A stretch of DNA of 64,000 nucleotides from Leptogorgia sarmentosa (GCA_964658305.1 OZ210885.1:4464001-4528000); one strand, 5' to 3'. Positions 24,244 to 55,100 are shown, counted from the first letter of the stretch. Translations and numbers: made by a program. Notes: generated by a model not told the origin, from the letters alone.

Positions 24244-25837
24244 TTGCTGTTTGTCAAGGAGAAATCTTCTTGAATAGCGGGAACTATACTCTAAATAACA
24301 TGACGTTTGTGAAGCGACGACTGCTGGCACTCCCCAATGCTATTGACATTTTTTGCGAAATATGGGCATTTTTATTACCCTTCTTAACTTTTTAGGCTTT
24401 TCAACCCTTTTCACAGTGTTTGGGATGTTTGTCATTTAAAAAACGATTTAAAAGTTTCTTTGAAACTTTGCACTAAAAACAACTTTGTTCCTTTCAATCC
24501 TTTGCCGAATGTTGTTGGACGCAGTAATCAAAAAGCACCCGCACATGGAAGATTCGAGGTCGGTACTAGATCATGGTGACCTTACGCACATATCCGCGAC
24601 TGCTGTACATTCACGTCAGCGGTGATAGAAATTTCTATTGCCTGTAGCCCATAGCATTTGTATAAAGCGTTCAATATAAATACTTATCATTCGTATAAAT
24701 AGTGTTTGTATAAATACTTATAGCTTGTTGCAGGCGCTTTTTTCTCAGTACTGGAGATGAATTCTCAGCCGAACGATAGATTTCATTTCCCTTTTCTCGC
24801 CATTCGCACGAGACTGATTTCGACAGCATCTTTGAAATCACCTTGTTTGAATTTTGAAAGTGAAACTGCGTATGTCATTCCAGAAGTAACAGGGAAATAA
24901 TCTAACTTCGAAATACCAGAGGAGTAAGGAATAAAACATGGATGCGAACCTCTGGCTGAGGAAATACGTGGGTATAAGAAAATTAATGCGGGTAGAGGAG
25001 GAAATGTAGGGGAGAAACGGGTGGACAGGAGGATAAAACACGGATAAGAATATACGGATATGAGGAACCGCGATAAAACGCCGTGATATATTAATAACGC
25101 TAGAAACATTGTATGGCCAGTTGTTCAAAAACCGCTTAGTTTAACCCTGGGTTAACTTAAAATTTAAAGCAAATTGCCATGAATTTGTTTATGAATTTAG
25201 AAAGGTTTCTCCAGAAATCTTGTGCAGATCATTAATACCAACGTACTGTAAAACACTGGGTTAAATTTTAACCCAGGATTAGCCTCAACCTAGCTTTGAA
25301 TTAATATCTGAATTAATTAAATGTTGGTAATATATGAATAATATAAATGGTATCAAAAATCAACAAGCAGGTAAAGATCTAGTGCTACTGTACTATTGCC
25401 ATGATATAAGTTGAATATACACTTCTTGGATGACCTTTGATGTATTTATTTCTTACTAAAATAAGTCTTGGCTGGCCGGATTAGCGAAATATCTTTCAGC
25501 ACAATTGTGTACTACCTAGACTGTGGTCAGTACCTCATTGTTGTTTTTATTTTCTCAGATCTCTGATGAATACTTAATGACTACTTACATCAGTCTTCCA
25601 ATCATCCAAGGTGCACTTTGCAGAAACATATAGCTTCAAAGGAAGTGTATGAACACAAAAATATTCGAATAGCAGCACCAAATTGTCAGGCTGGCTTTGC
25701 CACTGCTATTTTTAACATCACAATATAATGGAACTATGTTTTCAAATCGAGGGAAATTTGACGATAACATTGATTAATATTTATTCGTGATAATTTAATT
25801 ATTATGATAAACATATTTAATAAGTATAAAAATATAC

Positions 25838-25918
25838 TGCAAATTTGAAAAGTGTAACATCAGATGTTACACTAATTTGAAAAGTGTAACATCAAATGTT
25901 ACACTTTTCAAATTTGCA
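25838..25918. repeat. Palindrome with internal duplication
   Basis: TGCAAATTTGAAAAGTGTAACAT...ATGTTACACTTTTCAAATTTGCA. Confidence 0.8.
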
Positions 25919-26079
25919 GTTTGTAAAGCTGTGCACTGGGCCAGCTTGTGTTGTACAGAAGCTGGCCTTGTGGCCACGTTGGCCACATCTCCAACACTTT
26001 GATCCTGTTGGGGAAAAAATTTATGGTCAGGAATAAATTGATTTCACTACAATTATACCTGTTGACATAAAAGGACAAA

Positions 26080-26595
26080 CCCTGTGGACATATCTTGACA
26101 CTGGTGCGGGCCGAAATTTTATTTCTCATGAGGCTGTGAAGAAGCTTGGTCTGAATTCAACACATCATGAATCCCGTGACATTGTAACCGTGAGTGGCAC
26201 ATCTACTCAATCCGTGCCTATATTCAAAACAACCATAACTTCTCTTGATGGGAAAGTACAGGAAGAAAGCGAATTAGCTGGTTCTAGGCTCCAGGATTTT
26301 AAGACAGTAAAGAGATCCGTAATGAACGAAGTAAAGATGAAGTATACGCACACTCAAGATAAAAGGTTTTATATGAACGCTAAAGGAGAATATCCAATCC
26401 ATCTCATACTCGGTGATGGAACGTACAGCAGAATCCGAACGGAGAATGTTTATAAAGGAAATCCTGGAGATCCTCTTGTGGAAGAAACAACATTTGGATG
26501 GGTCATTCATGGTGGTGAAGATTACTCGAGCGATGTGTGTGCATGTTCGCTAGAGAAATTAACGATTACGAACAGTTATACAGTCTTGATATTCT
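26080..26595 (+). pseudogene. BEL/Pao protease region, left part of the interrupted host element
   Basis: YLDTGAGRNFIS (aspartic protease DTG), IHLILGD, ETTFGWVIHG; ends EQLYSLDIL at the insertion point. Confidence 0.88.
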
Positions 26596-26610
26596 TCTTA
26601 ATACGTATCC

Positions 26611-27105
26611 CTAAATATTGTTCCTTTAACAATGCCATTTAAAGGTCAATTTCGCATGATTCACGGTCTGCTGCGCATATAACCGTTATTGGGCCAAACC
26701 ACAACATTATACGCATGGTCAATGAAGCGAAAAAATAATTTAAATTTGCAAATACGTGGTAGGAGAAGTGAAAATGTTTCACTATCATGTATGAATATAT
26801 TAAAACATAATATTAGGAACACATGTAAATGAAGGGGTCGTTCCCCTTTTGAAAAGGAACAGGTATTTAAACGGAACACATTGTTCCGTTTCAATTTAAG
26901 TTGTTCCGCACCGCCTATGTTCCGAAATTCGGAACGCTTTAACAAATGTTCATTAAGGAACAATAATAATTGGAGTTCCTTTATTTAGGAACAAAACCTT
27001 CCGCTCTTGCACATATAATAGGTGTTAAAGTGGAACGATTTGTTCCCTTTTCTTGGTCCCTTTTATTGTTCCCTTTGGTTGTTCCCTTTTATTGTTCCCT
27101 TGTGA
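26611..27105. promoter_or_regulatory. GGAAC/GTTCC pentamer cluster, putative protein-binding or origin array
   Basis: About 17 pentamers in both orientations within 500 bp; repeated at about 34380-34665. Function is inferred. Confidence 0.55.
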
Positions 27106-27244
27106 AGGAAGCAATGTCATGAACAATACATCTCTCACAATGCAGTGCCTTAGGCTGTTAATAAGAAAGTCAATTTATGCAGTTTGCATAAGTTGTTGTT
27201 ATAAAAGCCAAGGTACTTTTGATCGCAAACATTTTATCGTTTAT

Positions 27245-28887
27245 ATGTTTGCACGTAGAAAAGCTCAAATAGATTGGAAGTCTGTAGACGGGGCGTTTAC
27301 AAAACCGAGGCGATTGCATTTGGTGAAAGGCAGCGATGGCTTACATCATTGTCCAGTAATAGCTTGTGAACATTCAAGATTTGGCAGTCAAAGAGGCTGT
27401 CGTAAACATGTTAAAACTATACATGCATGATATTACTATTTTGACAAAAGGCCCGAAGTGTGCCTTTCGCCGCTTGCAATCACCGAAACGCAGCGAAGAT
27501 CTGGTAAAGCAGTCCCGGGCTGTTCCACAGATAATGACTTTGCTAGATCGTTTTCAAAATGGCTTCAAAGCAGCTGTGGCGGCGGCAAATCTGCCACACA
27601 ATCGGACGTTTCGGTTAACCGAGCATTAAAGTTCATAAAGTTTTGTTGTGACGAGAATGGCGAGGGCGAAGAAGACGTGCTCAATGCACCTAATCTCATC
27701 GATTACGCCTTGGGGTCTCCACAACTAGTAACAAAGTTTGTGGACGCTCTCAAAGAGAAGTGGTGTATTGGACACTCAGGAGAAATTGGGTATGTCGCAA
27801 GTATTTCTGATTTACTAGATTTTCGCAAATTCAATCGTCCCCCTGCAACGGTGCTTCAAAACTTCGCAGTTACCGAAGTGTATGTAAAGAGAGCGCGAAA
27901 GTATTTAGCCAAAGACATGAGATCAAATTGGACCACCGAACTGGGTATAGAAACCCTCGAATCCCGTAGAAGTTGGGCGACTATTTCCGAAATACAATCC
28001 GTCATTCCATTTCACGAGGACCGTTATAAATCTGTATTAGAAAATTGTATGATATCACCTTCTACAGTCAAAACAGGGGACGTCACATTTGCCACCAGAT
28101 TCGTTGCAGCTTACATGTTCCTCAAAGTGAAAGGTTGCCGCGCAATGACCTACCAACATCTCACCTTGCGAATGTTTGAATGTGCGAAAAGAAATGAAGG
28201 AATAGTGGATCAGAAAGTATTCAAGACCGCTAAAACGTATGGGTTTGACAGTGTTTACTTTGACGAATGCAGCATCCAGTTACTGGAAAAGTATATAGCG
28301 TATGTAAGGCCCCTTCTCACACCCACTTGCGACTATGTGTTGGTGAATCGAAACGGTAAACAGTTCCAAAAACTTTCTAATCTTTTGAGTGTATTGGTGT
28401 TTGAAGCAATAGGAAAATACATTCATCCAACTAGGTACAGACAGATCATCGAAACAGAAAGTGCGCAAGTTCTCCTGCCAAACGAACAGCAGTGGATATC
28501 TGAAGACCAAAAGCATAGCTCCAACATTGCCCGTGTACATTATCAGAAGAAAAGATCCCGTGAAGTGGCCATGAGAGGATGTGAGTGCATGAAAAAATTA
28601 ATTGAGAGAAGTACTAGTTCACAGAGAGAAGATGAGCATGAACAACAGCCCTCGTCTGGCCCCACACATGTTGGCGAAGACACGCCCATCGTTTCCAGCC
28701 CGAAAAAAGCCAAATATACTCGAGGCCCTCGCTTCACAGGTGTGAGGAAGATAACGCCATACGCTTGGGCATTACAAAGTTCGGTTTTTGTTGGACAAGG
28801 ATATTACGCCATCCAGAATATAACTTTCATGCATGTAGACTGGCAAATACTTTAAGAAAGAGGGCGGAAGCCTTGAAATTAGTGTAA
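27245..28887 (+). pseudogene. C2H2 finger - tyrosine recombinase - Myb/SANT protein, copy 1 (546 aa when repaired)
   Basis: CPVIAC..HVKTIH finger; catalytic-like GCR, KTAK, HPTRYR and KHSSNIARVHY; TGA stop at 27428-27430 and 2-bp insertion near 28741 relative to copy 2. Confidence 0.85.
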
Positions 28888-29171
28888 TGATTGCGTGTAA
28901 ACCTTAAATAATTGTAGGTATTATTAGTGTGAATTACATGGGGAAAATGTTGTAAAGAGAAATACAAAAATCAATGTACACCTGCCTATGTGTTATTCTT
29001 TTTCCAACACTCCTTATAATATAATAGTCGTGGAAAGGAACACTACAAAAATCTGTGACATTAAATACATTCACTTTGCATCATCCTTTTGCTTGTATTG
29101 CATGACTCCAGAAATGACAAGAAAGCCTAATTATGACAACTGACAGAACAAATAATGATTGCTTTTATCAA

Positions 29172-29451
29172 CCAGGTGATCTCGATACACGGAAAAAGAC
29201 TGGGACTAGCTGTCAAATAGAAATCCATTTTTCGACCGAAACAACTGAATATCTCTCATAATATACTTTATTTCGATTTCATATTTTTGTCAGAGCTATA
29301 ATTCTCATAACCAAACATAATTACAAAGTTTCAAGTAGTTTCGTACAGAATAACAAAAGATATAAGCGTGTGAATATAGCAAAATGGATTTCTATTCGGG
29401 CAACCCTTTCTGAGCGCTGATTGGCTGAAACACGAATACAAGATCATCTGG
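29172..29451. mobile_element. 280-bp MITE nested in unit 1
   Basis: TIR CCAG(G/A)TGATCT with AA on both sides; absent at the matching site of unit 2 (ATCAAGACTGTG, about 36726). Confidence 0.85.
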
Positions 29452-29453
29452 AA

Positions 29454-31068
29454 GACTGTGAGAAAGAAATAGGTTAGGGTTAGAGTAAGGTTTGGGTGTG
29501 GATTATTTATAAATAACCCCAACCCGGCCCGTAATCTGACCCTAACCTATCAAGAAATAGGTTAGGGTCAGACTACGGGCCGGGTTGGGGTTATTTATTA
29601 ATAACCCTAACCCAGCCCGTAATCTGACCCTAACCTATCAAGAAATAGGTTAGGGTCAGACTATGGGCCGGGTTGGGGTTATTAATAACCCCAACCCGGC
29701 CCGTAATCTGACCCTAACCCATCAAGAAATAGGTTAGGGTCACACAACGGTTTGGGTTGTGATTATGACTTCAATAATCCACACCCAAAACTGACCCTAA
29801 ATTATTGTCCAAATACTTTTACAAACAAGTGCAAACGCAATGTATGCTTCGTTACAACCGTCACAATGTTGTGGTAAAAAATGTTGAAAGTATCGCTTGC
29901 AAAAATTTTCTAAGTAAGTGTCGAGTGTATTTAGTTTTGTCAAAACATGACCGGCTACCCAATATAAATACTAATAAAATCGACCGGCTACCATCTAAAA
30001 TAACCGGCTACCGCCATGTGGTAGCCGGTCGTCAAAAATTTTCTAAGTGTCGAGTGTATTTAGTTTTGTCAAAACTTGACCGGCTACCGGCTACCCAATA
30101 TAAATACTAATAAAATCGACCGGCTACCGACCGGCTACCATCCAAAATAACCGCTACCGCCATGTGGTAGCCGGTCGTCAACAATTTTCTAAGTGTCATT
30201 TGGCAAAATGTTGTAAGTGCCATTACAAACGTTTTGTAAGGATTTAGCAATAGCGTTATAATAATAATAATCTATTAATTAAAATCACATTGCAGTAGAA
30301 CTGAATTACATGATTATATGACAACTTTAAATAGCTACAATAAAATATTTATCGAAGATTAGGACAATGATTAATACACCTATATATACACATTGTGAAG
30401 GCTATAATACTCTAGTAATTGTACTATAATTCTCACCAAAAGTATTTAAAAGTATAAAAAAAGTATAAATGCAATAGAGACTTAGAAAATTTTTGACGAC
30501 CGGCTACCACATGGCGGTAGCCGGTTATTTTGGATGGTAGCCGGTCGATTTTATTAGTATTTATATTGGGTAGCCGGTCATGTTTTGACAAAACTAAATA
30601 CACTCGACACTTAGAAAATTTTTGACGACTGGCTACCACATGGCGGTAGCCGGTTATTTTGGATGGTAGCCGGTCGATTTTATTAGTATTTATATTGGGT
30701 AGCCGGTCATGTTTTGACAAAACTAAATACACTCGACACTTACTTAGAACATTTTTGCAAGCGATACTTTCAACATTTTTTACCACAACATTGTGACGGT
30801 TGTAACGAAGCATACATTGCGTTTGCACTTGTTTGTAAAAGTATTTGGACAATAATTTAGGGTCAGTTTTGGGTGTGGATTATTGAAGTCATAATCACAA
30901 CCCAAACCGTTGTGTGACCCAAACCTATTTCTTGATAGGTTCGGGTCAGACTACGGGCCGGGTTGGGGTTAATAAATAACCCCAACCCGGCCCGTAGTCT
31001 GACCCTAACCTATTTCTTGATAGGTTAGGGTCAGATTACGGGCCGGGTTGGGGTTATTTATTAATAAC
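29454..31068. repeat. Palindrome array plus long inverted repeat (arms about 29590-30195 and 30478-31068)
   Basis: Alternating inverted 40-bp monomers ATAGGTTAGGGTCAGAYTACGGGCCGGGTTGGGGTTAT; inner 130-bp tandem units rich in GACCGGCTACC; ORFs 29805+ and 30433- translate almost identically. Confidence 0.92.
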
Positions 31069-31284
31069 TAACTTATTTCAAGTGCACGAATGGCAAATGA
31101 GGACAACGATATTCTTGAAGGTATAATCGATGTATTACAGTGACTTGCAAGAAGAGTTGGGCAAACAAATGACACATAGGCGGTTGTAAATTGATGTGTG
31201 TATTATTTTTTTCACTCTGGCAATAATAATAATAGAAGTTTCACAACTTTACACTTTGAAAGAATAGAATGATCAAAAGAAAAG

Positions 31285-33921
31285 TCATCTGGACATCCAG
31301 TTTCTCACACTTTGCCAAAAGCTTACTTGTGGCGCTGTGCTGTATGCCGGGTTGGTCTCATCTCCACTGTCGTCGCCGTCATCATTCTGGACACTCGTAG
31401 CACTCTCCACATTGTCATCCGAGATGGAATGCTCCCCCGCACTGCCATCATCCGCCACACTGCTATCAGGAGCCACACTCGCGTCACCAAGGAGACTCGC
31501 CTCATCAAGGATGCTGGCCTCGGCAAGTACACTGGCGTCACTCTCTCCACTTGCGTAACGTTCGACACTCCCATCTCCCCTACTGCCTTCCTGCTTGGTG
31601 TCTGCGCTGTGCGCTTCTTCCGAGTTTTGGGAGGATGCGTCGTTGTCACTTTCTGGAACGATGGAGGAGAGGATAGTGGACTCTGCATCTGTGTTCTGTT
31701 CCTGCGACGCATTTTGCTCCAGGTCGGAGGGAATGGCTGCATTCGAGGATGAAGTGGTCTCCTCGTGTCTTCTCCTTTTATCACTTCGCCTGGCTACTTT
31801 GCGGGCACGAGCCTCCACGTGAAATGCCGGATGAATGTTGTCATCGTTGCTGTCATGACTCAGTGCTTGTGCGCTCGTGCGCTCGTGCTTGGTGCTTGCA
31901 GATCGGCATCCACAATTCCGGCGATGGCGTCACGCTTCCACAGGGAGGAGGACTTGTTTGCAGTAATGACGTTTCGGCGGCCATTTCCTTCTTCATACCA
32001 CAATTCCTCCGGAGGAATCAGGTGGCGATGGTCGTTAAGTTCGTTGGCTATCCATGCAATGCAGTGCATGGCATTGTTGTATAGCCAACGATCTACGCCT
32101 GGATACACGGAAGGGAGAGAGGTGGTGCGGTATATTTCCACTCGTCTCTTGACGTTCTCGTCGTCCTCGCCGAAGTTTGGCACGTCGTTTGTGGTGATGT
32201 AAAACGGGCTGTTGTTGTTTACACACCTGGGGGCGGCGTGTTTGACAGCCGTGACCATCCAACCGCCTTGAAGCAGGGTCTTCGCCAACTCAGCTGACAT
32301 GTGCACCCTGCTCCACTCGTCGATTATGACCAAACACGTGTCCTCGTTTATCATCGCGGCCGAAAACTGTGCCTCACTTGTCACCGAGACAATGTCTTGC
32401 GCAGGGATGACACGTCGCAATACGTTTGCCCACACCGTTTTACCCGAGTCACGCGGACCAACCAGTACCAGTTTCCGGGTTTTGTGGGGCATGTTGGAAC
32501 CGCAGATGCATTGGTAAAATTGTTCAGGAATGCAATTCTCACGTTCACATCCGGAAACGAATTAACAACGCCTTCTTCGAAGAAGCGCGGGTGTTGGTGG
32601 TGTGGAGGATCGATAGGGCATGAATGCCAGCGGCGAAACCTTGCCGATCTTCTCCGCGGAAATGGCGTCGGGAACGAATGAGCGGCAACTTATCGGGAAG
32701 CAGATTCCTTCAGACACTTCTATGAGGTCGGAATCGAACTCCATCTGCTCCACAAGTTCGCAGGCAGGGTGCGACAGGATTCTTTCGATGGTACTGAAAT
32801 GTCTCATCAGGGCGTCGTTGATGGCCGCGTTGCGAAGTATCTTGTTCAGATATGAGGTCACGTCCATCATTCTCACATAAGTAGCGGTCGCTCCTTCCGC
32901 TTTGCCGTAGATGGCCGAACGATGGAGGGTGTGTTCGCATATTGCCATCATGCGAGAGATCTTCTTTATGGTGCTTGTGACCTCGTTTTCTTTGGGAACG
33001 GATGTCGCCACGTTCGATTGGTGCGAGTGCAAGGTGAGACCATCCGATCGCACTCTGTCCACCGCGGTGTGTATGCCATGCTCGTACCCCTCGTGGTTCA
33101 CAACGGTGAAAACACAGGGCAGGGTTGGGAAGTGCTTCGGTTGGAAGTGCTCGTCTTCATCCTCTGCCTCATCATTCGACGACGACTGCACGTCCTCATA
33201 ACAATGGGCATTGGAGGCATCTAACATCTCCTGCACCGTGGCGTTGTTGTGGTCTTTCACAACCTGGAACAACTGCCGGCGGCAGTGTCCATCTGGTCGT
33301 TGTCCCCCTTCCTCACATTGATTGACTGGAAAAAGAGGACAGGTGTGAGGTGTAAGAAAGTGTGCATCATTTCAACACCTTGGATTGTTAGCTACACATC
33401 TTCAAATTACGTTTACCTTAATATTAGGTTCCAGGTCTTCATTGTGGAGTCGGGCAAAGAACGTGTCCTGATTGCACTCTTCGGATGGGGTGTACACAAT
33501 AAAGTACGCAATCGCGGGATACGCCTCATTCTTGGATTGCCCGGTGCTCGATCGCTTCTCGTTGGTCGATACTGCCGTGATGCAGGAGAAAAAGAAATGG
33601 ACGGATTTCATGCTTTTAATGACGTCATCCAACTTCAAGCGTTTCGACGCAATCTGGAGTGTCACCAACTCAACGTCTTCTTCCCGTACCCGCCATGTAG
33701 CACGGCACACAAGTGCTTTGTAACTTGGTCTTATCTGGTAGGATAGAGACGGATTGACCAATGTCCATGTAAATATTTTATGAACATGTGAATATGCAAT
33801 TTGTAAAAATGTGAGCTCTACATATGTGATTAAATGCACTTACCAAACTTAAAATGTTCGCTCGAAGCGAGTTTTGTATGCGCTTGGAGTCTAACTCCTT
33901 CCGCGGTTTTGGTGGCGGCAT
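31285..33921 (-). pseudogene. Spliced superfamily-3 helicase (Rep-like) gene, copy 1
   Basis: Walker A GPRDSGKT, Walker B IIDE and motif C YITTN; start MPPPKPRKELDSKR; GT-AG introns at 33735-33843 and 33326-33416; several frameshifts; acidic Ser-rich tail. Confidence 0.88.
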
Positions 33922-34807
33922 TTCTGCTCACTTTGCTTTCCTTGCTTTACTTGCTTTACTTTTCTTGACTTTCCTTTCCTTTTCTTCACTGTCCTTTCCT
34001 TGCTTTCCTTTTCTTTCCTTTACTTTCCTTTTCTTCCCTAATAACTTTTCTGAACTTTTTTTTGGAGTGTCACTCGGCGAACGGTGCAATGTTTATGGGC
34101 AAAGTGTAAATCGCGTTCGCTTTTTAAGCGTTTTCATGTACGAAATTTGCATTTGAACAGAAAAGGAACAACATTTAGTACTTGGGTCTTAATAACAATG
34201 CCATTTAAAGGTCAATTTCGCATGATTCACGGTCCGCTGCGCATATAACCGTTATTGGGCCAAACCACAACATTATAGGCATGGTTAATGAAGGGGAAAA
34301 ATAATTTAAATTTGCAAATACGTAGTAGGAGAAGTGAAAATCTTTCACTATCATCTATGAATATATTAAAACATCATGTTAGGAACACATGTAAATGAAG
34401 GGGGAGTTCCCCTTTTGAAAAGGAACAGCAATTTAAACGGAACACATTGTTCCGTTTCAATTTAAGTTGTTCCGAAAATGGGAACGCTTTAACAAATGTT
34501 GATTAAGGAACAATAATAATTGGAGTTCCTTTATTTAGGAACAAAATGTTCCGCTCTTGCAGATATAATATGTGTTAAAGTGGAACGATTTGTTCCCTTT
34601 TGTTGTTCCCTTTTATTGTTCCCTTTGGTTGTTCCCTTTTATTGTTCCCTTTTATTGTTCCCTTGTGAAGGAAGCAATGTCATGAACAATACATCTCTCA
34701 CAATGCAGTGCCTTAGGCTGTTAATAAGAAATTCAATTTATGCAGTTTGCATAAGTTGTTGTTATAAAAGCCAAGGTACTTTTGCTCGCAAACATTTTAT
34801 CGTTTAT

Positions 34808-36446
34808 ATGTTTGCACGTAGAAAAGCTCAAATAGATTGGAAGTCTGTAGACGGGGCGTTTACAAAACCGAGGCGATTGCATTTGGTGAAAGGCAGCGAT
34901 GGCTTACATCATTGTCCAGTAATAGCTTTTGAACATTCAGGATTTGGCAGTCAAAGAGGCTGTTGTAAACATGTTAAAACTATACATGCATGGTATTACT
35001 ATTTTGACAAAAAGCCCGAAGTGTGCCTTTCGCTGCTTGCAATCACCGAAACGCAGCGAAGATCTGGTAAAGCAGTCCCGGGCTGTTCCACAGATAATGA
35101 CTTTGCTAGATCGTTTTCAAAATGGCTTCAAAGCAGCTGTGGCGGCGGCAAATCTGCCACACAATCGGACGTTTCGGTTAACCGAGCATTAAAGTTCATA
35201 AAGTTTTGTTGTGACGAGAATGGCGAGGGCGAAGAAGACGTGCTCAATGCACCTAATCTCATCGATTACGCCTTGGGGTCTCCACAACTAGTAACAAAGT
35301 TTGTGGACGCTCTCAAAGAGAAGTGGTGTATTGGACACTCAGGAGAAATTGGGTATGTCGCAAGTATTTCTGATTTACTAGATTTTCGCAAATTCAATCG
35401 TCCCCCTGCAACGGTGCTTCAAAACTTCGCAGTTACCGAAGTGTATGTAAAGAGAGCGCGAAAGTATTTAGCCAAAGACATGAGATCAAATTGGACCACC
35501 GAACTGGGTATAGAAACCCTCGAATCCCGTAGAAGTTGGGCGACTATTTCCGAAATACAATCCGTCATTCCATTTCACGAGGACCGTTATAAATCTGTAT
35601 TAGAAAATTGTATGATATCACCTTCTACAGTCAAAACAGGGGACGTCACATTTGCCACCAGATTCGTTGCAGCTTACATGTTCCTCAAAGTGAAAGGTTG
35701 CCGCCCAATGACCTACCAACATCTCACCTTGCGAATGTTTGAATGTGCGAAAAGAAACGAAGGAATAGTGGATCAGAAAGTATTCAAGACCGCTAAAACG
35801 TATGGGTTTGACAGTGTTTACTTTGACGAATGCAGCATCCAGTTACTGGAAAAGTATATAGCGTATGTAAGGCCCCTTCTCACACCCACTTGCGACTATG
35901 TGTTGGTGAATCGAAACGGTAAACAGTTCCAAAAACTTTCTAATCTTTTGAGTGTATTGGTGTTTGAAGCAATAGGAAAATACATTCATCCAACTAGGTA
36001 CAGACAGATCATCGAAACAGAAAGTGCGCAAGTTCTCCTGCCAAACGAACAGCAGTGGATATCTGAAGACCAAAAGCATAGCTCCAACGTTGCCCGTGTA
36101 CATTATCAGAAGAAAAGATCCGGTGAAGTGGCCATGAGAGGACGTGAGTGCATGAAAAAATTAATTGAGAAGTAATAGTTCACAGAGAGAAGATGAGCAT
36201 GAACAACAGCCCTTGTCTGGCCCCACACATGTTGGCGAAGACACGCCCATCGTTTCCAGCCCGAAAAAAGCCAAATATACTCGAGGCCCTCGCTTCACAG
36301 GTGAGGAAGATAACGCCATACGCTTGGGCATTGCAAAGTTCGGTTTTTGTTGGACAAGGATATTACACCATCCAGAATATAACTTTCATGCATGTAGAGT
36401 GGCAAATACTTTAAGAAAGAGGGCGGAAGCCTTGAAATTAGTGTAA
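34808..36446 (+). pseudogene. C2H2 finger - tyrosine recombinase - Myb/SANT protein, copy 2
   Basis: YR domain open (GCRP, HPTRYR, KHSSNVARVHY); a 2-bp deletion near 36168 separates the Myb domain RFTGEEDNAIRLGIAKFGFCWTRIL..LRKR. Confidence 0.88.
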
Positions 36447-36730
36447 TGATTGCGTGTAAACCTTAAATAATTGTTGGTATTATTAGTGTGAATTACATGG
36501 GGAAAATGTTGTAAAGAGAAATACAAAAATCAATGTACACCTGCCTATGTGTTATTCTTTTTCCAACACTCCTTATAATATAATAGTCGTGGAAAGGAAC
36601 ACTACAAAAATCTGTGACATTAAATACATTCACTTTGCATCATCCTTTTGCTTGTATTGCACGACTCCAGAAATGACAAGAAAGCCTAATTATGACAACT
36701 GACAGAACAAATAATGTTGGGTTTCATCAA

Positions 36731-37012
36731 GACTGTGAGAAAGAAATAGGTTAGGGTTAGAGTGAGGTTTGGGAGTGGATTATTTATAAATAACCCCAAC
36801 CCGGCCCGTCGTCTGACCCTAACCTATTTCTTGACAGGTTAGGGTCAGATTACGGGCCGGGTTGGGGTTATTAATAACCCCAACCCGGCCCGTAATCTGA
36901 CCCTAACCTATTTCTTGATAGGTTAGGGTCAGCTTACGGGCCGGGTTGGGGTTATTAATAAATAACCCCAACCTGGCCCGTAGTCTGACCCTAACCTATT
37001 TCTTCATGATAG
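36731..37012. repeat. Palindrome array of unit 2
   Basis: Same 40-bp monomer in alternating orientation as at 29454; lacks the inner long inverted repeat. Confidence 0.92.
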
Positions 37013-37566
37013 TCTTTCTAAAAGTGGACATTATGTGAATGTGTAGTCAAGGTTTTTTCCTTCCTACTCAGGGGATCTTTCTCTAACTGTTGCCCTTCCC
37101 AGCTGTAATTAGACAAATGCCATTAACACACATATTTTAATTGAAATAATTATAAGTCATAGTGCACATAACGCACTAGAAAAATGTAAGGTTAATAAGT
37201 TGAGATTACATGAAATTTGTTCACAGTCACAGCGTTCAATAACATTGTTCGTACACTAATGGGTTGTTACACACTTTGAATCAACGATGATTTAATATAT
37301 TACAACACTTCTTCATAATCATATAATATAGAAAGGATTTAAACAACAGCAGCCTGGATAACGGTGTCATCTGCAGGCGAACGGATTTCATAGGTAATGC
37401 CAATGGATTTGAAATGGGATATTTCATGCAGATTTCCCTTCAATTTTCAATGGAAGTTCAGGAAACGAAATGCTTATTCAATTGTTTCGTTGCGGAAGTT
37501 TTTGGGCAATGTACATAAAATAAGATGAAGGGAATCGGCTTGTATTCATGCACACTGACAATTGTT

Positions 37567-40025
37567 TCAACCCCACCAGTTTCGAATGGTTGTCCAGTAC
37601 GATGGTTGGTTCTCACGATGTTCAACTTGAACAGGGGATTCTCCGGAAACATCTGGGGTGTCGGTGGTGGTTTGTTGTGATAGACCAGCTTCTGTTTGTG
37701 CAGTTGAAGTTGATGGTTGAAGGTCGGATTCCGCTAATGCAGTGGGCGACGGAGGAACATTCGGTGTGGAAAAAGTTTCTTCTGATTCGCGACTGGTGTG
37801 TTCCAGGTGGTGAGCAGGTGCAATTGTGGGACCTTCGCTATTGGACGTATAAGAATCGTTCCCATCTCCTGTCATTGCGGGTGTGGTTGGTGTTGATGGC
37901 GACCGCAAGCTTTCCGTGGGTTTGGGAGAGGTCACTACATTTGGCTGATGCTCCTCGTCAGACGAACTGGCGGTGGAATTTACTGGCCTCGCACGTGGTC
38001 GTTTCCTCATCATGCGTCTCCTTCTTGCTTCCATCGTGAAGCTCGCATGGATTGTGTCATGTGTGGTGGTGGGTTGGGTAGCGGACTCACCATGAAGATC
38101 AGCGTCGGTGATCTGTACAATCTCCCGTCTGTGCCACGGAGTGGGGGTGAGTGACTTAAAGTGTGCTCGTCCTCATACCAGCGCTCCTCCGGATGGATGA
38201 GGTGGCGATGCCTAGTTATCTCCTCGGCGGCCCACGCGATGCAGTCCATCGCGTGATCGTACATCCACTGGTAAGCGTCAGGTGTTATGGTTGGGAGGGA
38301 GGAGGTGGTGAAGTTCTCAACTCTCCGTTGGACATTTGTGTTCTCTTCATCAAAGTCCGGCACTGCATTGGTGGTGATGTAAAACGGGCTGTGGCAAGTT
38401 ACGTGTCTTGGTTGGGCGTGCTTTACCGCAGTTACTAACCAACCGCCTTGCAGGATGGTCTTCGCGAGATCGGCGGACATTGTGTTTGCACACCATTCGT
38501 CAATGATGACGAGTTGGGTGTCCTCCTTGATCATGGCAGCTGAAAATTGGCGCTCGTTCGTGATGGATGCGATGTACTGGGGTGGAACTATGCGTTGAAG
38601 GATACGTGCCCACGAGGTTTTGCCGGAATCGCGAGGTCCTGCGACAACCAATTTTCGCGTCTTCTGAGGGATTTTCTGCGCGAGTAGGCACTGGTAAAAT
38701 TTATTCATGAAGTTCGTGCGCACGTCGACATCGGGAAAGGAATTGTAGAGCCCTTGGCGAAAGTATAGAGGTTGAGGTGGTGTGGAGGAGTCGTAGGGTA
38801 TGTACGCTCGCGGCGACAACTTGCCAATGCTTGCTTCTTGGATGGCATTTGCTATGAAGGCTCGACTGCAAATAGCAAAACAAACACCGTTGGACACTTC
38901 AATAAGGTTGAAGTCAAAGGCTAGCTGCTCGATGATCTCGCACGCCGGATGGGACAGTATGGTTTGGACACTTTTCATATTTTTGACCAGCTGCTGATTG
39001 ATAGCGTCGTTGACAAGCAGTTTGTTTAAATAGCTGCCAACGTCCATGAGCCGTGTGTAGGTGAATTGCGCTCCATCGGGAGTTGCATAAATGTCACCAC
39101 GGTACAGGGCGTGTTTCGACAGGTGCATAACCCGTTCCACCTTGCGGATGGTGGATATCACATCTGTGGACGGTGAGTCAGACGAACGTGGGTGGAAGTT
39201 TGGGCGCGGTGTAGTTTCCACAACCAGGCCATCAGATTGGGTCCTCTCTATTGCAGCGTCAAATTCCTCGAGATAACCTTCGTGATTTACGATGACGAAA
39301 CAACAAGGAGAGGTTGGAAAATGGACCGGGCAAAATTCCTCCTCTGACTACTCGTCTTCCTCCTCCTCGCTTTCACTGGACGCAGCGGGTGCATTGCTAT
39401 AGCAGTAGGTGTTGGACGCGTTCAGCATTTCCTGCACGGACGGATTGTTATGATCTTTCACCGTCTGGAAGAGCTGTCTAGCTGCAGTTTCCAGATCCGG
39501 CTTTCCGCGGGTGCGCACCCTGATCGGCGTTATTTCTGGCTCCACGTCCTGATTGTGCAATGCAGCAAAAAAGGTCCCCTCGTGGCATTTGTCGCTGCTT
39601 TCGTAGACGATGAAGAATGCCACACAAGGATAGGTGTCGTCGTCGTTTGTGTTGCTGCTTTGCCCCTTCTTCGTGTTCGCATTGGAAGAGACGGCAGATA
39701 TGGCCGAGAAAAAGAAAGCCACACCTTCGATTGCTTCTATCACCTCGTTGAGCTGCAGACGTTTGGAGGCAATTTGTAACGTAGCCTGTTCAATGTTCTC
39801 AGAAGGAACTCGCCATGTAGCGCGACATGCGACCGCTCGATGTTTAGGTTTAAGCTAATGCAAAATAAATGCGATATTATTTAGGTTGCATATACGTCGG
39901 GTACATAGGTTTTTGCCAAAATGTAGATAAAGAATGTCATGGGAACTTACCAAGCTCAAAACATTTGCGCGCAGAGAGTTTTGCAGGCGTTTCGAATCTA
40001 GTTCTTTTCTTGGCTTCGGCGGCAT
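37567..40025 (-). pseudogene. Spliced superfamily-3 helicase (Rep-like) gene, copy 2
   Basis: GPRDSGKT, IIDE and YITTN; start MPPKPRKELDSKR; intron at 39855-39950; in-frame TAG at 39348 and a frameshift near 38150. Confidence 0.88.
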
Positions 40026-40392
40026 TTTGCAAGAGAACTAATTGTTGTGTGCACTTGCAAGAGAACTTGTTGTGTGCACTGAACGGAAATGTTGAATGAA
40101 TTTATATGTTTTGCTATGATGGTATTAACATTTTCGCAAATTACCGCCTCCCGGATATGAATCTGCGAAAAATCACCCTCAAATTTTGAATATAAAAGAT
40201 ATATTATAACAACCACTCGCTTCTCTCAAAAACCCTCTCTCTAAAATATATTACAACCACATGTAAAATAACCCTTCCCATTGGCTGCCCGCTAGTTGCT
40301 CTACTTCCGGTCCCGCGACCTTGGCAACTTCCACATTTTTTTCTCAGCCAATTTCCAACAAACATAGGGAACAATATTTAGTACTTGGGTCT

Positions 40393-40530
40393 AGTTGAAG
40401 ATCGTGGTGAAAACGACCAAATGCAAGTCCTTTCAGAATTTCGGGAAAGCATAACCAGGCAAGAAGATGGCAGATACCAGGTTAGCATTCCGTGGATTCC
40501 TGGCAGTAAGTTGACAACTACAAATGGTCA
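40393..40530 (+). pseudogene. Continuation of the interrupted BEL/Pao pol
   Basis: VEDRGENDQMQVLSEFRESITRQEDGRYQVSIPWIPG is homologous to GVVESNKIHDEFVESITFNGSRYSVKLPW in the 18169 ORF. Confidence 0.85.
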
Positions 40531-40904
40531 GATTAGTATTAAGGTCGAGGCTGGTCTCTTGATGGTGATCGATAGTCAGGTGCTGGTGAAATTGTGGCCA
40601 GTCAGCCGGTTCAACATCAAGAGAAGACTAATAGAAGATCATGGTGATGGTTATAATGGTGATCTGATGATCGTGGTGATGGTTATAACCATAGGTGATG
40701 GTAAATTATGATGGTGCTATAGAAAAGAACGTGGCTAACCGGAAATGGGCAGGTTAATGGTTTATGATGTGTCTTTGTGCAATGAGTGGAATCAAGACTG
40801 ACGACAGACTTTCTTCACTGTTATGGTGAAGGAGGTGGTAGTTAGAATGACTGTAGTTGTAGTCGAGGCTGCTCTCTTGGCGGTGATCCATATTCAGGTG
40901 CTGG

Positions 40905-41248
40905 CAGGGGCGCCGGAAGCCACTTGCAGCGACAGGGGCAGCCATTTAAAAAGGGCACTTTTTCTAGACATTAAATGTTCCTGTGCGGTAATGTTCGGTA
41001 AGATTTTCCTATATGGATACTGGACCACACTGCACAAGATGTTTTTATATAAAATAAATTCGATACAATTTTATTTTACGTATTACTTTACATTGAATTA
41101 TATTTAAGAAACACAATTACACCTGTTAACGCTAATAATGCATGATTAATGAAATATCCTTCATATCCTCCATGTGGAAAAGGGCAACGAGATGCCCCCG
41201 CACCTTAAGGGCAACAGGGGCAGCTGCCCCGTGCTTCCGGCGCCCCTG
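40905..41248. mobile_element. hAT-type MITE
   Basis: TIR CAGGGGCGCCGGAAGC; 8-bp TSD GGTGCTGG at 40897-40904 and 41249-41256. Confidence 0.92.
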
Positions 41249-41271: not shown

Positions 41272-42660
41272 TCAACATGCCCAGCTTTAGAACAGAAACA
41301 GCCGAAGCATTCGAAGTCACGGGGGTTGATTTTGCCGGGCCCTTAAGAGACAAGATCGCAAAGAATAAAGAAGGAAAATGCTACATATTAATCTTCATGT
41401 GTGCAGCATTTCGTGCGGTGCACTTGGAACTAACTAAGAGTCAAGAAGCGGAGGAGTTCCAAAGAAAGCTCAATTCTTTCATCGGACGAAGAGGAGGCCT
41501 CGATTAATGATATCAGACAATGCAGCGACATTTAAAACGACGGCAAAACTAATCAAAGTTATAAGGAAGAGCGAGAAGTTACACGATTTCCTAGCAACAC
41601 AAGATATACACTGGAGATTTAACCTTGCCAGGTCTCCATGGTGGGGAGGCATCTATGAGTGATTGATTCGTGAAATAAAGAAGACCTTGTACAAGACCCT
41701 AGGAAGATCGCACCTTTCATTCGAGAATTTAGAAATGGTTCTTATGGATATTGAAATTAATATGAACAATCGTCCTTTAACCTACGTAGAAAGTGAGAGT
41801 GGGGAGGAAGAAGTGCTGACGCCAAGTGTTCTGATCTGAGGAAAAAACACTTGAATGACTTAGAGAACGATGCTGACGAGCTTACGAAGATGCAGAGGAC
41901 GGTCGTTAAGGCAAAGAACGACGCTTGAAAAAGATGGCAACGGGAATACGTACACAGCCTAATGGAGAGCCAGTTAGCCCGCCTGAAGTAGGAGAAATAG
42001 TTTTAGTCATGGGAGAAGAAAAGAATAGGAGTGAATGGAAGAAAGGAAAAGTGGTCCGACAAGTAAAAGGCAAGGATGGTGTGCTGTCTCACAAGGGTCA
42101 CACTATCGAAAGACCACTACAGTTGGTATGTCCACTCGAAATTCGATGCACAACGCAAGTAGAAGAAAGCCAGAACGAAAAGAAACGCGAGGTTGAACCG
42201 CAAAGCTTAAGAAAAAGAGGGGCAGCAATGGAAGCAAGAAAGAAAATATGAGAACAGGCAGAGAACGAGGATGAACTGTAGATAAGGACATTTGACACTG
42301 AGTTGAAGTTATAAAAATTAAGTTTAAATTTTTAGGAGAGTAATATACGGGAACGTTAAGATATAAACAACAGGGGGGCGGGGCAAGTCTAAATATAGAA
42401 ATGAGTAATATAGGAGGGCTTTTTGTGAGAGACAGAAGAACAACAACATTGTGGGTTTTGGGAGGATTTATAAATTTTAGTTTGTAAGTTTATTTTTGGT
42501 TTATATTTTGAAATATATAGTATACTTGGGAGTGTGTGATGAGTTCGGTATAGTGGGATAGACTTTTGTAGAATTCGTGTATTTCGTAGAATTCGTGTAT
42601 TTTCGCTGGGTTAGATCCGTTGATTACTGGTAGATTTATGACTTCCCCGATATAGCCGTT
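41272..42660 (+). mobile_element. BEL/Pao 3' part: integrase, polypurine tract and LTR
   Basis: GVDFAGP and following integrase motifs; highly similar to 3775-5162. Confidence 0.9.
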
Positions 42661-50840: not shown

Positions 50841-51109
50841 CTACTCTGGGGTCTAAACTCGCCCAAACTCGCCTAAACTCGCAGCATATTGAAAGGATCT
50901 TTTACCCTTAACTCGCCCAAACTCGCCTTACTTAACTCGCCTTAACTTACAATTATTTAACAACTATTATTACTTATGACAAGTTTTCAAACACCATGGC
51001 ACAATTAATGTGGCAATAGTTTTTATCAATGAATGAACACCTGAGCTTGTGCGCAAAGGCATTATATTAAAACAGAAGCAACCTCATTAACAACATGCTT
51101 TGAGTACTA

Positions 51110-51669
51110 CAGGGTGTCTCAAAAAAAGGTAATCGAACTTTGGCATGCCATTGTGCGTTAATTACTGGGTGTACGAACGTGATTTTTGCATGGTCATAAA
51201 TTTCAAGGTGTTAGCAGTTGAATGACATATTTCTTGTACGATATGGAAGAAAATCAGGCAAATGCGAGCGTGTTGGAAAATCTCGGTGAAAAACGCATTC
51301 TTTCACCTCTGTGCCTAATTAAAGCAGTGCCATGCGAATGTGTCATGGTAACAAAGATTTTATCAGGATTATTAATAATTATGCATAATCAGGTCGATTG
51401 TTGAAGGGAAGGTCCTCATCTTCGAGTCCGAGGGAGTTAATTTTGAATAAGTTTAGCTGCAATTCTCAGAGGTGAAAGAATGCGTTTTTCACCGAGATTT
51501 TTCAACACGCTCGCATTTGCCTGATTTTCTTCCATAGCGAACAACAAATATGTCATTCAACTGCTAAGACCTTGATCTTTATGACCATGCGAAAATCACG
51601 TTCGTACACCCAGTAATTAACGCACAATGGCATGCCAAAGTTGGATTACCTTTTTTTTGAGACACCCTG
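51110..51669. mobile_element. Tc1/mariner-type MITE with inverted arms of about 200 bp
   Basis: CAGGGTGTCTCAAAAAAAGGTAATC termini with TA flanks. Confidence 0.92.
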
Positions 51670-51940
51670 TATATTAAAGAATATTGATTGTTTGCTTATT
51701 AACTTATTAACAAAGTTCACATTCTGCAGTTGCAAGCCTGGTCTAATTTTTAGACACTCCGAAAGTATCTCAAGCTAGTTGTAAATACTAATATTCTCCA
51801 ATTGTTTAATTACCAGCATCATGATGTATAAATAATTAATATGTTAATTTGATTTGATTTGAATAAATTACATACGTTGTCTGATTGATCCTGGAACTCC
51901 ACTAGGCCCACTACGCTATATTATGTAAATTTTACCTTAC

Positions 51941-52187: not shown

Positions 52188-55100
52188 ATAGATAGATAGA
52201 TAGAAAACTTTATTTAATCACGCTTACAACGTCAGCCGTAGCTGGTTTCCACGAAGGGCGTGCGAATTACAAAATTTAGAAAAGTAAGGTATTAATGATA
52301 CAGTATATGAACAAATATAAGGTCTGCTGATGCTAATTTTACTACGACTATTACAAAATGTGTTGCTAATATAATACTAGTCCCCAAAAAGTTTAACTAT
52401 TTATATAAAGGTTTATAAGTGTTGTTACAAATTAAGTATATACATTTACATTTTATTTAATTTCATGAACAGCGATTCTCTTAACAAATTGTGAAAATGT
52501 CCCACTTTGCCTAATTTCAGCGGGCAAAGAGTTCCATGTTGATGCGCCGTTGTAGCTGAAGCTCTTTTTTAAGCTATCAGTACGGGGTTTGGGTAGGCAA
52601 ACGGCTGATGATATGCCTCTAAGATTATATTTTGGTGTTTCTACGTTTTTGGGAGTAAATATTTTTGAGAGACTTTTTGGTCCTTGATCATTTAGAACTT
52701 TAAACATTAATTTAGCTTTTGCTTTTTTTCGTTGTTCTTCAAGTGTTTGCCATCCCAATTTTTCTAGAACAATTTTGTGATCAACATCGTTACTTATTTG
52801 AGTAATAGTTCGTGCCGCTCTGTTATGTAATTTTTGTAAACGAGTTGATTGAGTTTTTCCTAACACATCCCAAACTTCGCAACAATAGCTAAAATGAGGC
52901 TGTACAATGGCATTGTATACAGAGAGGAGTGAGTCTTGGTCAACATATTCGGTTAGTCGTCTAATGGCACCTATACCTGAGGAATTTTTTTTGCACAATT
53001 TCTCAATATTACTTTTCCAACTTAAATGTTGATCAACACTCACACCTAATGTTTTGCACTCGAAAACTTGTTTAATTTTTCTGTCGTCTATTTTGATATT
53101 TATTTCTGTATCTTGTGTCTTATGCAACATATGTTTGGAGCCTATTATCATAAACTCAGTTTTGGCAACATTGAGACTTAATTTGTTTGTGGTCAACCAT
53201 TCTTTAAGGTTGACTAACTCTGAGTTCATGACGGCTTCAACATCAGCAATTGTTTCACCAATTGCAGTTAAATTAGTATCGTCAGCAAACATCCGAGGTC
53301 TGGTCTTGTCTAAACATTGTGGCAAGTCATTTATATATAGTAGAAACAACAATGGTCCCAATATAGATCCTTGAGGAACACCACACGTGATTGTGCTTTT
53401 AGAAGAAATTGAGCCGTTTACTTGACATATTTGGGTTCGATTTGATAAATAGGAATTTAGTAGTGACAGGGCATTCCCTCCAATTCCATAAAGTTCAAGT
53501 TTCCGTAACAAAATACCATGGTTAACAGTGTCAAATGCTTTTTTTAGATCTATAAATACTACTAAGTTAAATAGTTTTCTGTCCATGTTAATATACCATT
53601 CATTTGTGCAATCTAATAAAGCAGTGGCAGTTGAGTGTGATTTGCGAAAACCAAATTGATTTTCGGAGAGCAATTCATTTTCGCTCAGATAATTATATAA
53701 CTGATCATAGAGTAAACGTTCCATGACTTTGCTGATAGCAGTTAAAATTGAAATTGGCCTGTAGTTTTCTGGTAAATTTCTTGACCATTTTTGTAAAGAG
53801 GAGTAACTCTTGCTGTTTTCCATTCATTTGGGAATGTACATTGATCAAGAGTTTGATTAAATAGGTATGTTAATGGTGATGCAATAATTGGTGCTGATAT
53901 TTTAATGATTTTACTGGAAATCGTATCAATACCAGTTGCTTTATTAGTTGAGAGTTTACTTAAAAGATGGTAAATGGTATTAACAGTTACAGGATTAAAT
54001 GCTGTGAATTCAGATATGGGTGGTTGGATAAAGTGTTCAAAATTGCAGTCATTTGTTGGTATTATATCTGCTAAATTTTGACCTATACTGACCTAAACAG
54101 CAATCTCTTCTGGGGATTGTAAAGTATTATTTGATATTTGAAGTTCATTTATTATTGTTGGTTTATTGTTTTTGCGTCCTAATATTTGGTTAATTGTCTT
54201 CCAGGCTTCTTTTGGGTTTGCTTTTTGACTGGCTATTTTATTAGAATAATAATTTGTTTTTGCTTCTCTTAATTCTTTATTCACTTTATTTCGTAATTGT
54301 TTATAGCTTTTCCAATCAGTTTCAAGGCCTGTAATAATTGCTTTTCTTTTAAGTTTATCTCTTTCATTCATCAATGTTTTTATATTGCTTGTTAGCCATG
54401 GTATTTTATGAGAACGAACTTTCTTGGTTTGGATCGGTGCATGTTTATTTAATATTTCTAGGAAAAGCTCTTTCCAAATTTGCCATATGTTATCAGGGTC
54501 ATTTTCCAAAGAAATATACATATTCCCATGGCTGATTTGCAAGATCAGCAAGAAAGAGGTCCTGATTGAATTTTTTCATATTCCTAATTTCTATAGTATT
54601 TACCTTTTCTTTCTTAACATTGTTTATTTTCCTTATTGCAAATATGAGACTGTGGTCACTCATACCTGTGTATGACATGACACCAGAGCAAGAAATTTTT
54701 TCAGGCCTGTTTGTCACTACATGATCAATGAGTGTGGCAGTTTGTATATATTGCTTCCTCAATTAATTGTGACATCTGATACATTTCGTATACAGATGTC
54801 AATTTCTTAGTTGGTGCATCATAATTTTCTTTTTTCAGATCACAGTTTAAGTCACCGAGTATAATTGTTTCTTTCATTTCATAATCAATTGATTTGATAA
54901 AACTTTCGAAATGTGTAAAGAAATCTTGTGATGCACTTGGAGGTCTATATACTGTAAATAAAATGAAAAGTTGACTATTGGGTTTCATAATTTCTAGACA
55001 TACAACCTCCAGTTGATCTGGTACTAAATCATTTCTAACCTTGTAATTAATTGAGTTACGAAGGTAAATACAAACGCCACCACCATTTCGAGCTCTATCT

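Follow-up and report, generated by a model that had tools for sequence, protein, structure and literature searches.

Organization of the locus

In a stretch of 64,000 nucleotides of Leptogorgia sarmentosa DNA (GCA_964658305.1 OZ210885.1:4464001-4528000), referred to here as the window, positions 26596-40392 are a head-to-tail pair, or dimer, of transposon units lying in the remnant of a long terminal repeat retroelement (Table 1). Each unit consists of a left end, a tyrosine recombinase (YR) gene, a palindrome array, a superfamily 3 (SF3) helicase gene on the opposite strand and a right end. The units are 6 to 7.6 kb in size with two genes each, and all four genes of the pair are interrupted by stops or frameshifts. 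The original prediction had recognized the pair within 26626-40025; the pair was confirmed, while its limits had to be moved outward to 26596 and 40392.

The end structure comprises 14-bp inverted arms around a 3-base core, and the core TCT was present at the left, middle and right junctions. The left arm of unit 1 and the right arm of unit 2 (40368-40381) are exact reverse complements, and a second right arm is located at 34165-34178. The right ends of the two units (34165-34189 and 40368-40392) agree at 24 of 25 bases, in agreement with the earlier observation that similarity between the units returns only in the last 25 bp or so. At the middle junction, the left end of unit 2 has lost 25 bases, its arm among them, and there is no flank DNA between the units; false haplotype duplication was therefore rejected. 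No arm-like or end-like sites were found between the YR and helicase genes in either unit of the window, and each unit was therefore considered to be one element. The only frames of gene size inside 26596-40392 were those of the YR and the helicase (plus overlaps of both), with no third gene or capsid and no reverse transcriptase within the ends. No Rfam family was detected in 26000-41000. The flanking retroelement is presumably BEL/Pao-like, judging from its motifs.

Table 1. Positions of the dimer and of its parts in the window
Feature	Coordinates	Strand	Description
Left flank	26037..26595	+	Retroelement pol remnant with aspartyl protease; frame resumes at 40393
Whole insertion	26596..40392	.	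Two YR-helicase units; host retroelement reading frame runs on across insertion
Left end, unit 1	26596..26624	+	Core TCT 26596-26598; arm CTAAATATTGTTCC 26611-26624, predicted YR binding site
YR gene, unit 1	27245..28884	+	Zinc-finger-like start, YR core, Myb/SANT-like tail; stop near 27428, frameshift near 28740
Insertion in unit 1 only	29172..29451	.	280 bp, short terminal inverted repeats, 2-base duplication; like a miniature inverted-repeat transposable element (MITE)
Palindrome array, unit 1	29452..29766	.	Units of ~88 bp, palindromic
Inverted repeat, unit 1	29590..31068	.	0.6-kb arms 29590-30197 and 30477-31068, 94%; hinge 279 bp, AT-rich
SF3 helicase gene, unit 1	31285..33921	-	Two introns (second 33326-33416); several frameshifts between 31860 and 33280
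Middle junction	34165..34192	.	Unit 1 right arm and core joined to unit 2 left end
YR gene, unit 2	34808..36446	+	Catalytic core open; frameshift near 36167 removes Myb-like tail
Palindrome array, unit 2	36729..37016	.	Unit 1 similarity stops inside array; no CCGGCTAC block behind
SF3 helicase gene, unit 2	37567..40025	-	One intron; stop near 39349, frameshift near 38130
Skipped stretch	40127..40360	.	234 bp between 5-base direct repeats; missing from contigs of sequencing runs X1, X3, X5
Right end, unit 2	40368..40392	+	Arm GGAACAATATTTAG; core TCT 40390-40392

The recombinase halves

Comparison of the YR halves by BLASTN (26627-29171 against 34193-36730) gave an identity of 96.7% over 2558 columns. 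Substitutions were unevenly distributed in a global alignment, with 25 in the 5′ non-coding 0.6 kb (95.8% identity), 11 differences in the 1356 bases of YR coding sequence (99.2%) and 11 substitutions in the 3′ 0.57 kb of the shared half (98.1%). The halves had been described as differing only by scattered changes, non-coding DNA included; their near-identity was borne out. The break at 29171 itself is due to the 280-bp insertion in unit 1, for which unit 2 has an empty site and at which (29171/29172) many contigs with unrelated flanks stop. Beyond the insertion, the two units match again (87.6%) as far as 29722/36999 in the array, so that the similarity does stop inside the palindrome array, as had been claimed.

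One array unit folds at -42 kcal/mol (DNA parameters). The 0.6-kb inverted repeat is found in unit 1 only, without a counterpart in unit 2, and all 16 CCGGCTAC/GTAGCCGG sites of the window lie inside it, at 29951-30706; this GGCTAC block is predicted to contain candidate origin repeats. A hairpin-telomere reading of the inverted repeat was rejected because the arms are only 94% alike and the hinge is not palindromic.

The predicted protein belongs to the tyrosine recombinase superfamily on the evidence of its catalytic set and of the core-binding/catalytic fold of its model. In an alignment of 48 rows, the R, K and R of what we take to be the catalytic motifs R-K-H-R-H/W-Y were present in all rows, the two H positions in 44 and 47 and the Y in 47. 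The model had a mean predicted local distance difference test (pLDDT) value of 80, and its best structural matches were phage integrases and Xer recombinases (Z 12.3-12.6, root mean square deviation 5.8-13.3 Å, 250-269 residues); the top rows included integrases, Xer and Cre, with a Foldseek E value of 0.015 at best. The YR had no Pfam or PHROG sequence match, and DUF3504 was not matched at E values of up to 1 in five full-length YR relatives. The relatives end in a Myb-like domain.

The helicase genes

The second gene is assigned to the SF3 helicases (D5/E1 type) from its motifs and the D5/SF3 fold predicted for it. Pfam matches were to PPV_E1_C and DUF5906, there was no PDB sequence match, and the key columns of Walker A, Walker B, motif C and the arginine finger were kept in 47-58 of 58 rows. 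The unit 2 helicase is 96-97% identical to relatives P0001, P0287 and P0291; a model of P0001 (the 96% relative) matched the SaPI5 primase-helicase (Z 14.4), AAV2 Rep40 (Z 14.1) and vaccinia D5 (Z 14.0).

The two helicases of the dimer are distant from one another. An exact count gave 85/124 identical residues in the ATPase core, reproducing the figure of about 70% (85 of about 124 residues by hand) in the original prediction, while at the DNA level the cores were 65% identical over 807 bases in a self-comparison of the window. Third positions agreed at only 46 of 104 identical ATPase residues, and the synonymous divergence was undefined, the silent sites being saturated. Protein identities were 24/26 residues for exon 1, 55/108 for the N-terminal domain, 94/197 for the middle part, 112/178 for the ATPase region and 46/210 for the tail. 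Tails and introns had been thought not to align by eye; the proteins do align over their whole conserved length, and intron 1 is at the same place in both genes, with a second intron in unit 1 only. The ATPase motifs, exon 1 and intron 1 are kept across distant helicase copies.

The second intron, of the GT-AG type, is read through in unit 2 and most related loci and is present in a contig of the public sequencing run X3, suggesting that it was gained in one of the helicase lineages of the mobile element.

No Pfam, PHROG or PDB sequence match was obtained for the N-terminal domain. In an Atlas search its neighbours were CRESS Reps and papillomavirus E1 DNA-binding domains (0.79-0.82), a lead only, and the order of strands and helices in the model appears compatible with an HUH-fold origin-binding domain. 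HUH Reps were absent from the structural match rows of the whole helicase, which were filled by the helicase core. There was no conserved HUH or YxxK motif in an alignment of 16 rows of this domain; a rolling-circle transposon of the HUH type (Helitron, Replitron) was rejected on this ground.

Conflict between recombinase and helicase phylogenies

In order to relate the histories of the two genes, proteins were assigned to a shared contig where their source contigs were equal in length in bp and longer than 10 kb. The input was 278 helicase and 281 YR proteins, drawn from listings of 15 members per cluster covering 120 of 150 helicase and 120 of 900 YR clusters, and yielded 26 shared contigs among 196 helicase and 185 YR contigs. 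Among the matches listed, YR and helicase therefore co-occur on at least 26 other contigs; at least 10 contigs have two helicase clusters and at least 10 have two YR clusters, as tandem arrays would give.

Pairwise comparisons were performed on the 21 contigs with one cluster of each protein plus the two window units, 188 pairs having at least 60 aligned columns in both proteins. For YRs at least 93% identical, 8 of 11 non-window contig pairs had helicases of only 52-64% identity and 3 had helicases of at least 95%. Conversely, 6 of the 10 contig pairs with helicases at least 85% identical had YRs of 51-83%. Identities of the two proteins were not significantly correlated (Mantel rho 0.13, p 0.19).

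Trees were constructed for 16 of the 21 contigs, five being left out for having fewer than 120 ATPase residues. Units 1 and 2 were sisters in the YR tree, while a clade of the two units was rejected for the helicase (approximately unbiased [AU] test, p-AU 0.004); this test was run after the tree had been seen, though the pair had been named by the original prediction. Four contigs of one YR cluster were rejected as a helicase clade (AU p 1.7e-5) and four contigs of one helicase cluster were rejected as a YR clade (AU p 0.007). Congruence of the two trees, proposed earlier as a check, was thus contradicted in both directions. A plain tandem duplication, already judged insufficient by the original prediction, was excluded by the divergence of 0.8% in YR coding sequence as against saturated silent sites in the helicases, together with the rejected helicase clade. 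Because the mismatch recurs on other contigs and congruence was rejected both ways, these sequence comparisons support module exchange as a trait of the family and not a quirk of this locus.

Relatives in other genomes

Homologue searches gave 150 helicase and 900 YR clusters, with different queries and limits. Named YR relatives came from Paramuricea and Oculina and named helicase relatives from Dendronephthya and Paramuricea, that is, from octocorals and one stony coral; most matches were without a name. A metagenome scan detected 30 related loci, whose short contigs never included a YR as well, and no helicase or YR relative was present among viral contigs in three scans.

Of 29 loci, 9 had a right-end motif, which in six of them lies beside simple triplet-like repeats (the end motifs had been picked by eye from these loci). 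In the window and these nine loci alike, no more than about 100-370 bases separate the helicase start from the motif. Clusters of GGCT[AG]C occur behind the helicase in 6 of 29 loci (3.8 versus 0.7 per kb). One locus, L013, has a complete right-end/left-end junction before the helicase. Another, L032, is a 19-kb animal-like contig in a bacterial bin in which the element is set in a microsatellite (TTTCTCTC repeat at both ends) and has the order left end, cut-off helicase, junction, YR, palindrome arrays and right end. The YR unit of L032 has no helicase, indicating that the YR can travel without one.

The arrays behind the L032 YR (L032:10686-12170) are unlike those of the window in their letters, with position and hairpin form conserved, and tandem 249-bp repeats with tRNA-like sequence break up its helicase (L032:3959-4904). 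L031-L035 are animal-type YR contigs inside metagenome-assembled genomes labelled bacterial, probably through host contamination; the four bacterial-labelled genomes behind them contained two weak ATPase matches. At the 3′ ends of L014, L018, L020 and L024, distant helicase relatives (36-41%) were found on contigs ending in A-runs, as spliced polyadenylated transcripts would.

The helicase-free unit raises the question of whether the YR part could be a CryptonV-like transposon of the ordinary kind, with the helicase as a passenger or separate selfish gene that lands repeatedly between array and right end without a role in replication. The existence of a derivative with a helicase fragment only, the excess of YR over helicase clusters (subject to the different queries and limits noted above) and the absence of the repeat block from unit 2 are likewise in favor of this explanation. 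We regard it as unlikely, given that there are no end-like arms between YR and helicase, that the helicase start keeps its short distance from the right-end motif, that even distant copies retain the ATPase motifs, exon 1 and intron 1 and that GGCT[AG]C clusters follow the helicase in six loci.

Occurrence in public sequencing runs

Part of the stretch was contained in 13 public runs from four studies, five of which (X1, X3, X5, X6 and X7) were compared in detail; the best-matching run may be the window's own sample. There was no RNA run among those listed as containing part of the stretch. Both helicase types were covered by run contigs at about 98-99% identity, the unit 1 type being present in all five runs. 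Complete left ends were observed in contigs of X1, X5 and X6, and contigs of X3 and X7 contain the left flank followed by 30 bases of the element, one base under the bridging threshold. One X1 contig extends from the start of helicase 2 through the right end into the flank, of which it covers 107 bases.

Behind the array or repeat block, all five runs had other sequences, including two different loose ends that each recur in three or four runs. In some contigs the repeat block follows the array directly, and in an X5 contig a piece of a third helicase is joined to the right end. Given two or more further sequences that follow the array or repeat block, and conflicting trees on other contigs, exchange of modules at the array and the end site, as put forward in the original prediction, is supported. 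Contig depth over the YR was ~10x that over either helicase in X1, X5 and X7; contig depth is not copy number and was not counted as evidence. In comparisons of 25800-41000 with the runs, C-to-G and G-to-C differences were as common as transitions, an odd spectrum.

The original prediction had offered gene conversion of the YR half as an alternative: of two diverged tandem units, one would have had this half overwritten by its neighbour's, with no traffic of modules. Tandem neighbours convert easily. The YR copies are identical over 27472-28141, a run of 670 coding bases such as 11 differences would rarely leave by chance (p about 0.007), and six coding differences from an X1 contig are common to both copies. 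The X1 contig differs from unit 1 at only 21 of 1758 bases, however, so near-identical YRs are the rule in these runs. Moreover, four of the six shared differences are silent, while the private ones are mostly damaging: at the 11 coding differences there are six amino-acid changes private to unit 1 and four private to unit 2. This pattern fits two sister copies of one active YR lineage that decayed separately. As the same YR-helicase mismatch occurs on separate contigs of other genomes and other sequences lie behind the array in five runs, wholesale conversion seems improbable. It is not needed for the pattern, since each YR has its own damaging changes, and the 670-base run could reflect a later conversion over a short tract, or polishing across the repeat.

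A second concern is that the tandem order could be an assembly error joining units of different loci through the near-identical YR repeat. Consistent with this, no listed contig bridges the middle junction as assembled, and the unit-1-type helicase contigs differ from the window by ~2% and are without some of its frameshifts, so that they may come from other loci. Such an error appears very unlikely. The YR halves differ by 4% in their 5′ part, each with private changes, unlike a false duplicate; the middle junction runs end to end without flank DNA; both outer junctions were matched in the runs; and junctions and tandems also occur in L013 and L032. Even if the order were wrong, both helicase types with one YR type would stay real.

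A model for exchange of helicase modules

We consider it likely that the locus is a head-to-tail dimer of a two-gene transposon of cnidarian type, that one YR lineage is combined here with two distant helicase lineages and that such re-pairing is family-wide. Most likely, on the sequence comparisons, this is a CryptonV-like cnidarian transposon that would excise as a circle, be likely to replicate with its own helicase and have its helicases reassorted through dimers. The YR would excise a unit as a circle by joining its right and left ends, and the circle would insert elsewhere or into the end of another unit, generating a dimer. The end-to-end junctions in the window, L013 and L032, together with the contigs having two clusters, suggest that units insert into each other's ends; these right-left junctions fit circles or tandems alike, the contigs being short. 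The original prediction had not recognized in the pair a dimeric YR transposon bounded by defined recombination ends, a structure that points to the likely route of exchange.

In this model, a dimer of unlike units would be resolved by a crossover in the shared YR/array part and not at the ends, resulting in a circle with the YR half of one unit and the helicase half of the other. Such a crossover would place the boundaries of exchange at the array and the end site, and the route needs only one site-specific and one homology-led event. After formation of the present dimer, both units would have decayed separately, and the lost arm at the middle junction would keep units 1 and 2 together. With the help of host polymerases, the helicase is predicted to copy the circle starting at the GGCTAC repeat block, and its N-terminal domain would bind the origin as the corresponding domain of papillomavirus E1 does. 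Unit 2 has no repeat block and some units have no helicase; we argue that replication functions may be dispensable or supplied in trans.

Several points weigh against the model. With respect to exchange, the links rest on equal-sized contigs of up to 1.8 Mb, on which adjacency of YR and helicase was not seen; the same contig is not the same unit, and tandem units could have been mis-paired. Only 15 members per cluster and part of the clusters entered the comparison, and in one of the six cases of similar helicases with dissimilar YRs (contig 334933, YR 51%) the YR may be an unrelated neighbour. The branch leading to unit 1 is long in the helicase tree, the identity over 670 bp may point to some homogenisation on a local scale, and the middle junction is unspanned in the listed contigs. 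With respect to replication, unit 2 has no GGCTAC block at all, 23 of 29 loci have no GGCT[AG]C cluster in their last 300 bases (many end early) and the YR unit of L032 is without a helicase. The origin-binding reading draws on Atlas values graded as a lead only; a second Atlas search of the N-terminal domain was blank, a profile of this domain found no solved (PDB) relative, and two histidines in it are invariant.

More tentatively, the element might be a capsid-less integrative plasmid of corals, with a Crypton-type YR and an E1-like origin-binding SF3 helicase, existing both as a chromosomal insert and as a self-copying circle and reassorting ancient helicase lineages among YR lineages through tandem dimers. 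If true, this would explain the gain in copy number of a Crypton that is cut out and reinserted, and would provide an animal counterpart of bacterial integrase-helicase satellites and a missing link between YR transposons and small DNA tumour viruses.

Excision and reinsertion of a circle give a Crypton no gain in copies; a family with a putative replicative helicase of its own and a candidate origin makes the question of how Cryptons multiply testable. Sharp ends and a wide distribution in coral assemblies allow circles and exchange points to be sought directly. In consensus models of the family based on the YR, several helicase lineages would go unseen.

Other features of the window

A second copy (88%) of the host retroelement is located at window positions 3776-5162 and 41273-42660, the insertion site being outside the copied part. 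A foldback-like element with 0.44-kb inverted arms of 31-bp tandem repeats is present at 57701-59094, a MITE-like pair of 220-bp inverted repeats (93%) at 51091-51686 and, on the minus strand at 52453-56352, a long interspersed nuclear element remnant with a GDSL-esterase-like first open reading frame, an endonuclease and a reverse transcriptase.

Comparison with known systems

The nearest named group, by description only, is CryptonV (Kapitonov and Jurka 2012, Repbase Reports), which the available part of PMC8869645 presents as YR DNA transposons of cnidarians, some families of which insert in microsatellites; CryptonV is also named in tables of PMC4455052 and PMC5753468. The host range agrees with the named relatives of the element (octocorals and a stony coral), and microsatellite insertion agrees with the related loci (6 of 9 right ends and both ends of L032). 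The insertion in the window differs in being in a retroelement and not in a microsatellite, and no helicase figures in the description of CryptonV seen, the comparison being with this description and not with Repbase sequences. A RepeatMasker label, "Crypton-H," is undefined in the portion of PMC10942377 consulted and might cover such elements.

In the broad sense the element resembles a Crypton in having a YR and no reverse transcriptase inside its ends. Cryptons A, F, I and S, as treated in the available text of Kojima and Jurka 2011 (PMC3212892), resemble it in their YR transposase and inverted YR sites and probably also in excision through an extrachromosomal circle, a route proposed for them, and in ending in short direct repeats; a helicase is unmentioned in that text. 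CryptonA and CryptonI of animals are described there as having no C-terminal domain and no terminal repeats, unlike the YR of the window with its Myb-like tail, 14-bp inverted arms and lack of DUF3504; CryptonA, with a DUF3504-type YR, was thus not matched on any of these three features. The terminal direct repeat is the 3-base TCT at three junctions, compared with 4-6 bp in fungal and oomycete Cryptons; an empty target was not found.

Papillomavirus E1 and polyomavirus large T, which according to the part of PMC6668415 seen carry an inactivated HUH domain, likewise have an SF3 helicase behind an N-terminal domain without HUH motifs. Clustered short repeats as a candidate origin and, as a lead only, the E1 DNA-binding domains among the Atlas neighbours add to the likeness. 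For the middle and ATPase parts of the helicase, the match to D5/SaPI primase-helicases equals or exceeds that to E1 (Z 14.4 versus 12.2), and the window element differs from both E1 and large T viruses in having no capsid and in having an integrase.

The bacterial satellites SaPI and P4 are capsid-less replicons with an integrase, an SF3 helicase and exchangeable modules. The window element differs from them in its eukaryotic host, its introns, the apparent absence of a primase domain and the lack of a known helper virus; structure 7ola was among the helicase matches.

Polinton-like viruses also combine a YR with an SF3 helicase, integrate in eukaryotes and frequently swap replicase modules, as far as the available parts of 10.64898/2026.10.13.758929 and PMC11131425 describe them; they are 14-40 kb in size, encode a capsid and have an AEP or PolA domain fused to the helicase. 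The window element is 6-7.6 kb, with two genes, no capsid, no primase motif seen and spliceosomal introns, and no further gene-size frame that could supply capsid or packaging functions is present inside its ends. No published two-gene YR and SF3 element of animals was found in the literature searched, Repbase lying outside that scope. The element is a real YR transposon with exchangeable helicase modules, in which many-to-many pairing of YR and helicase amounts to virus-like modular evolution in an animal DNA transposon; YR and SF3 pairs and shuffling of replicases are, on the sources seen, already known from the capsid-bearing polinton-like viruses.

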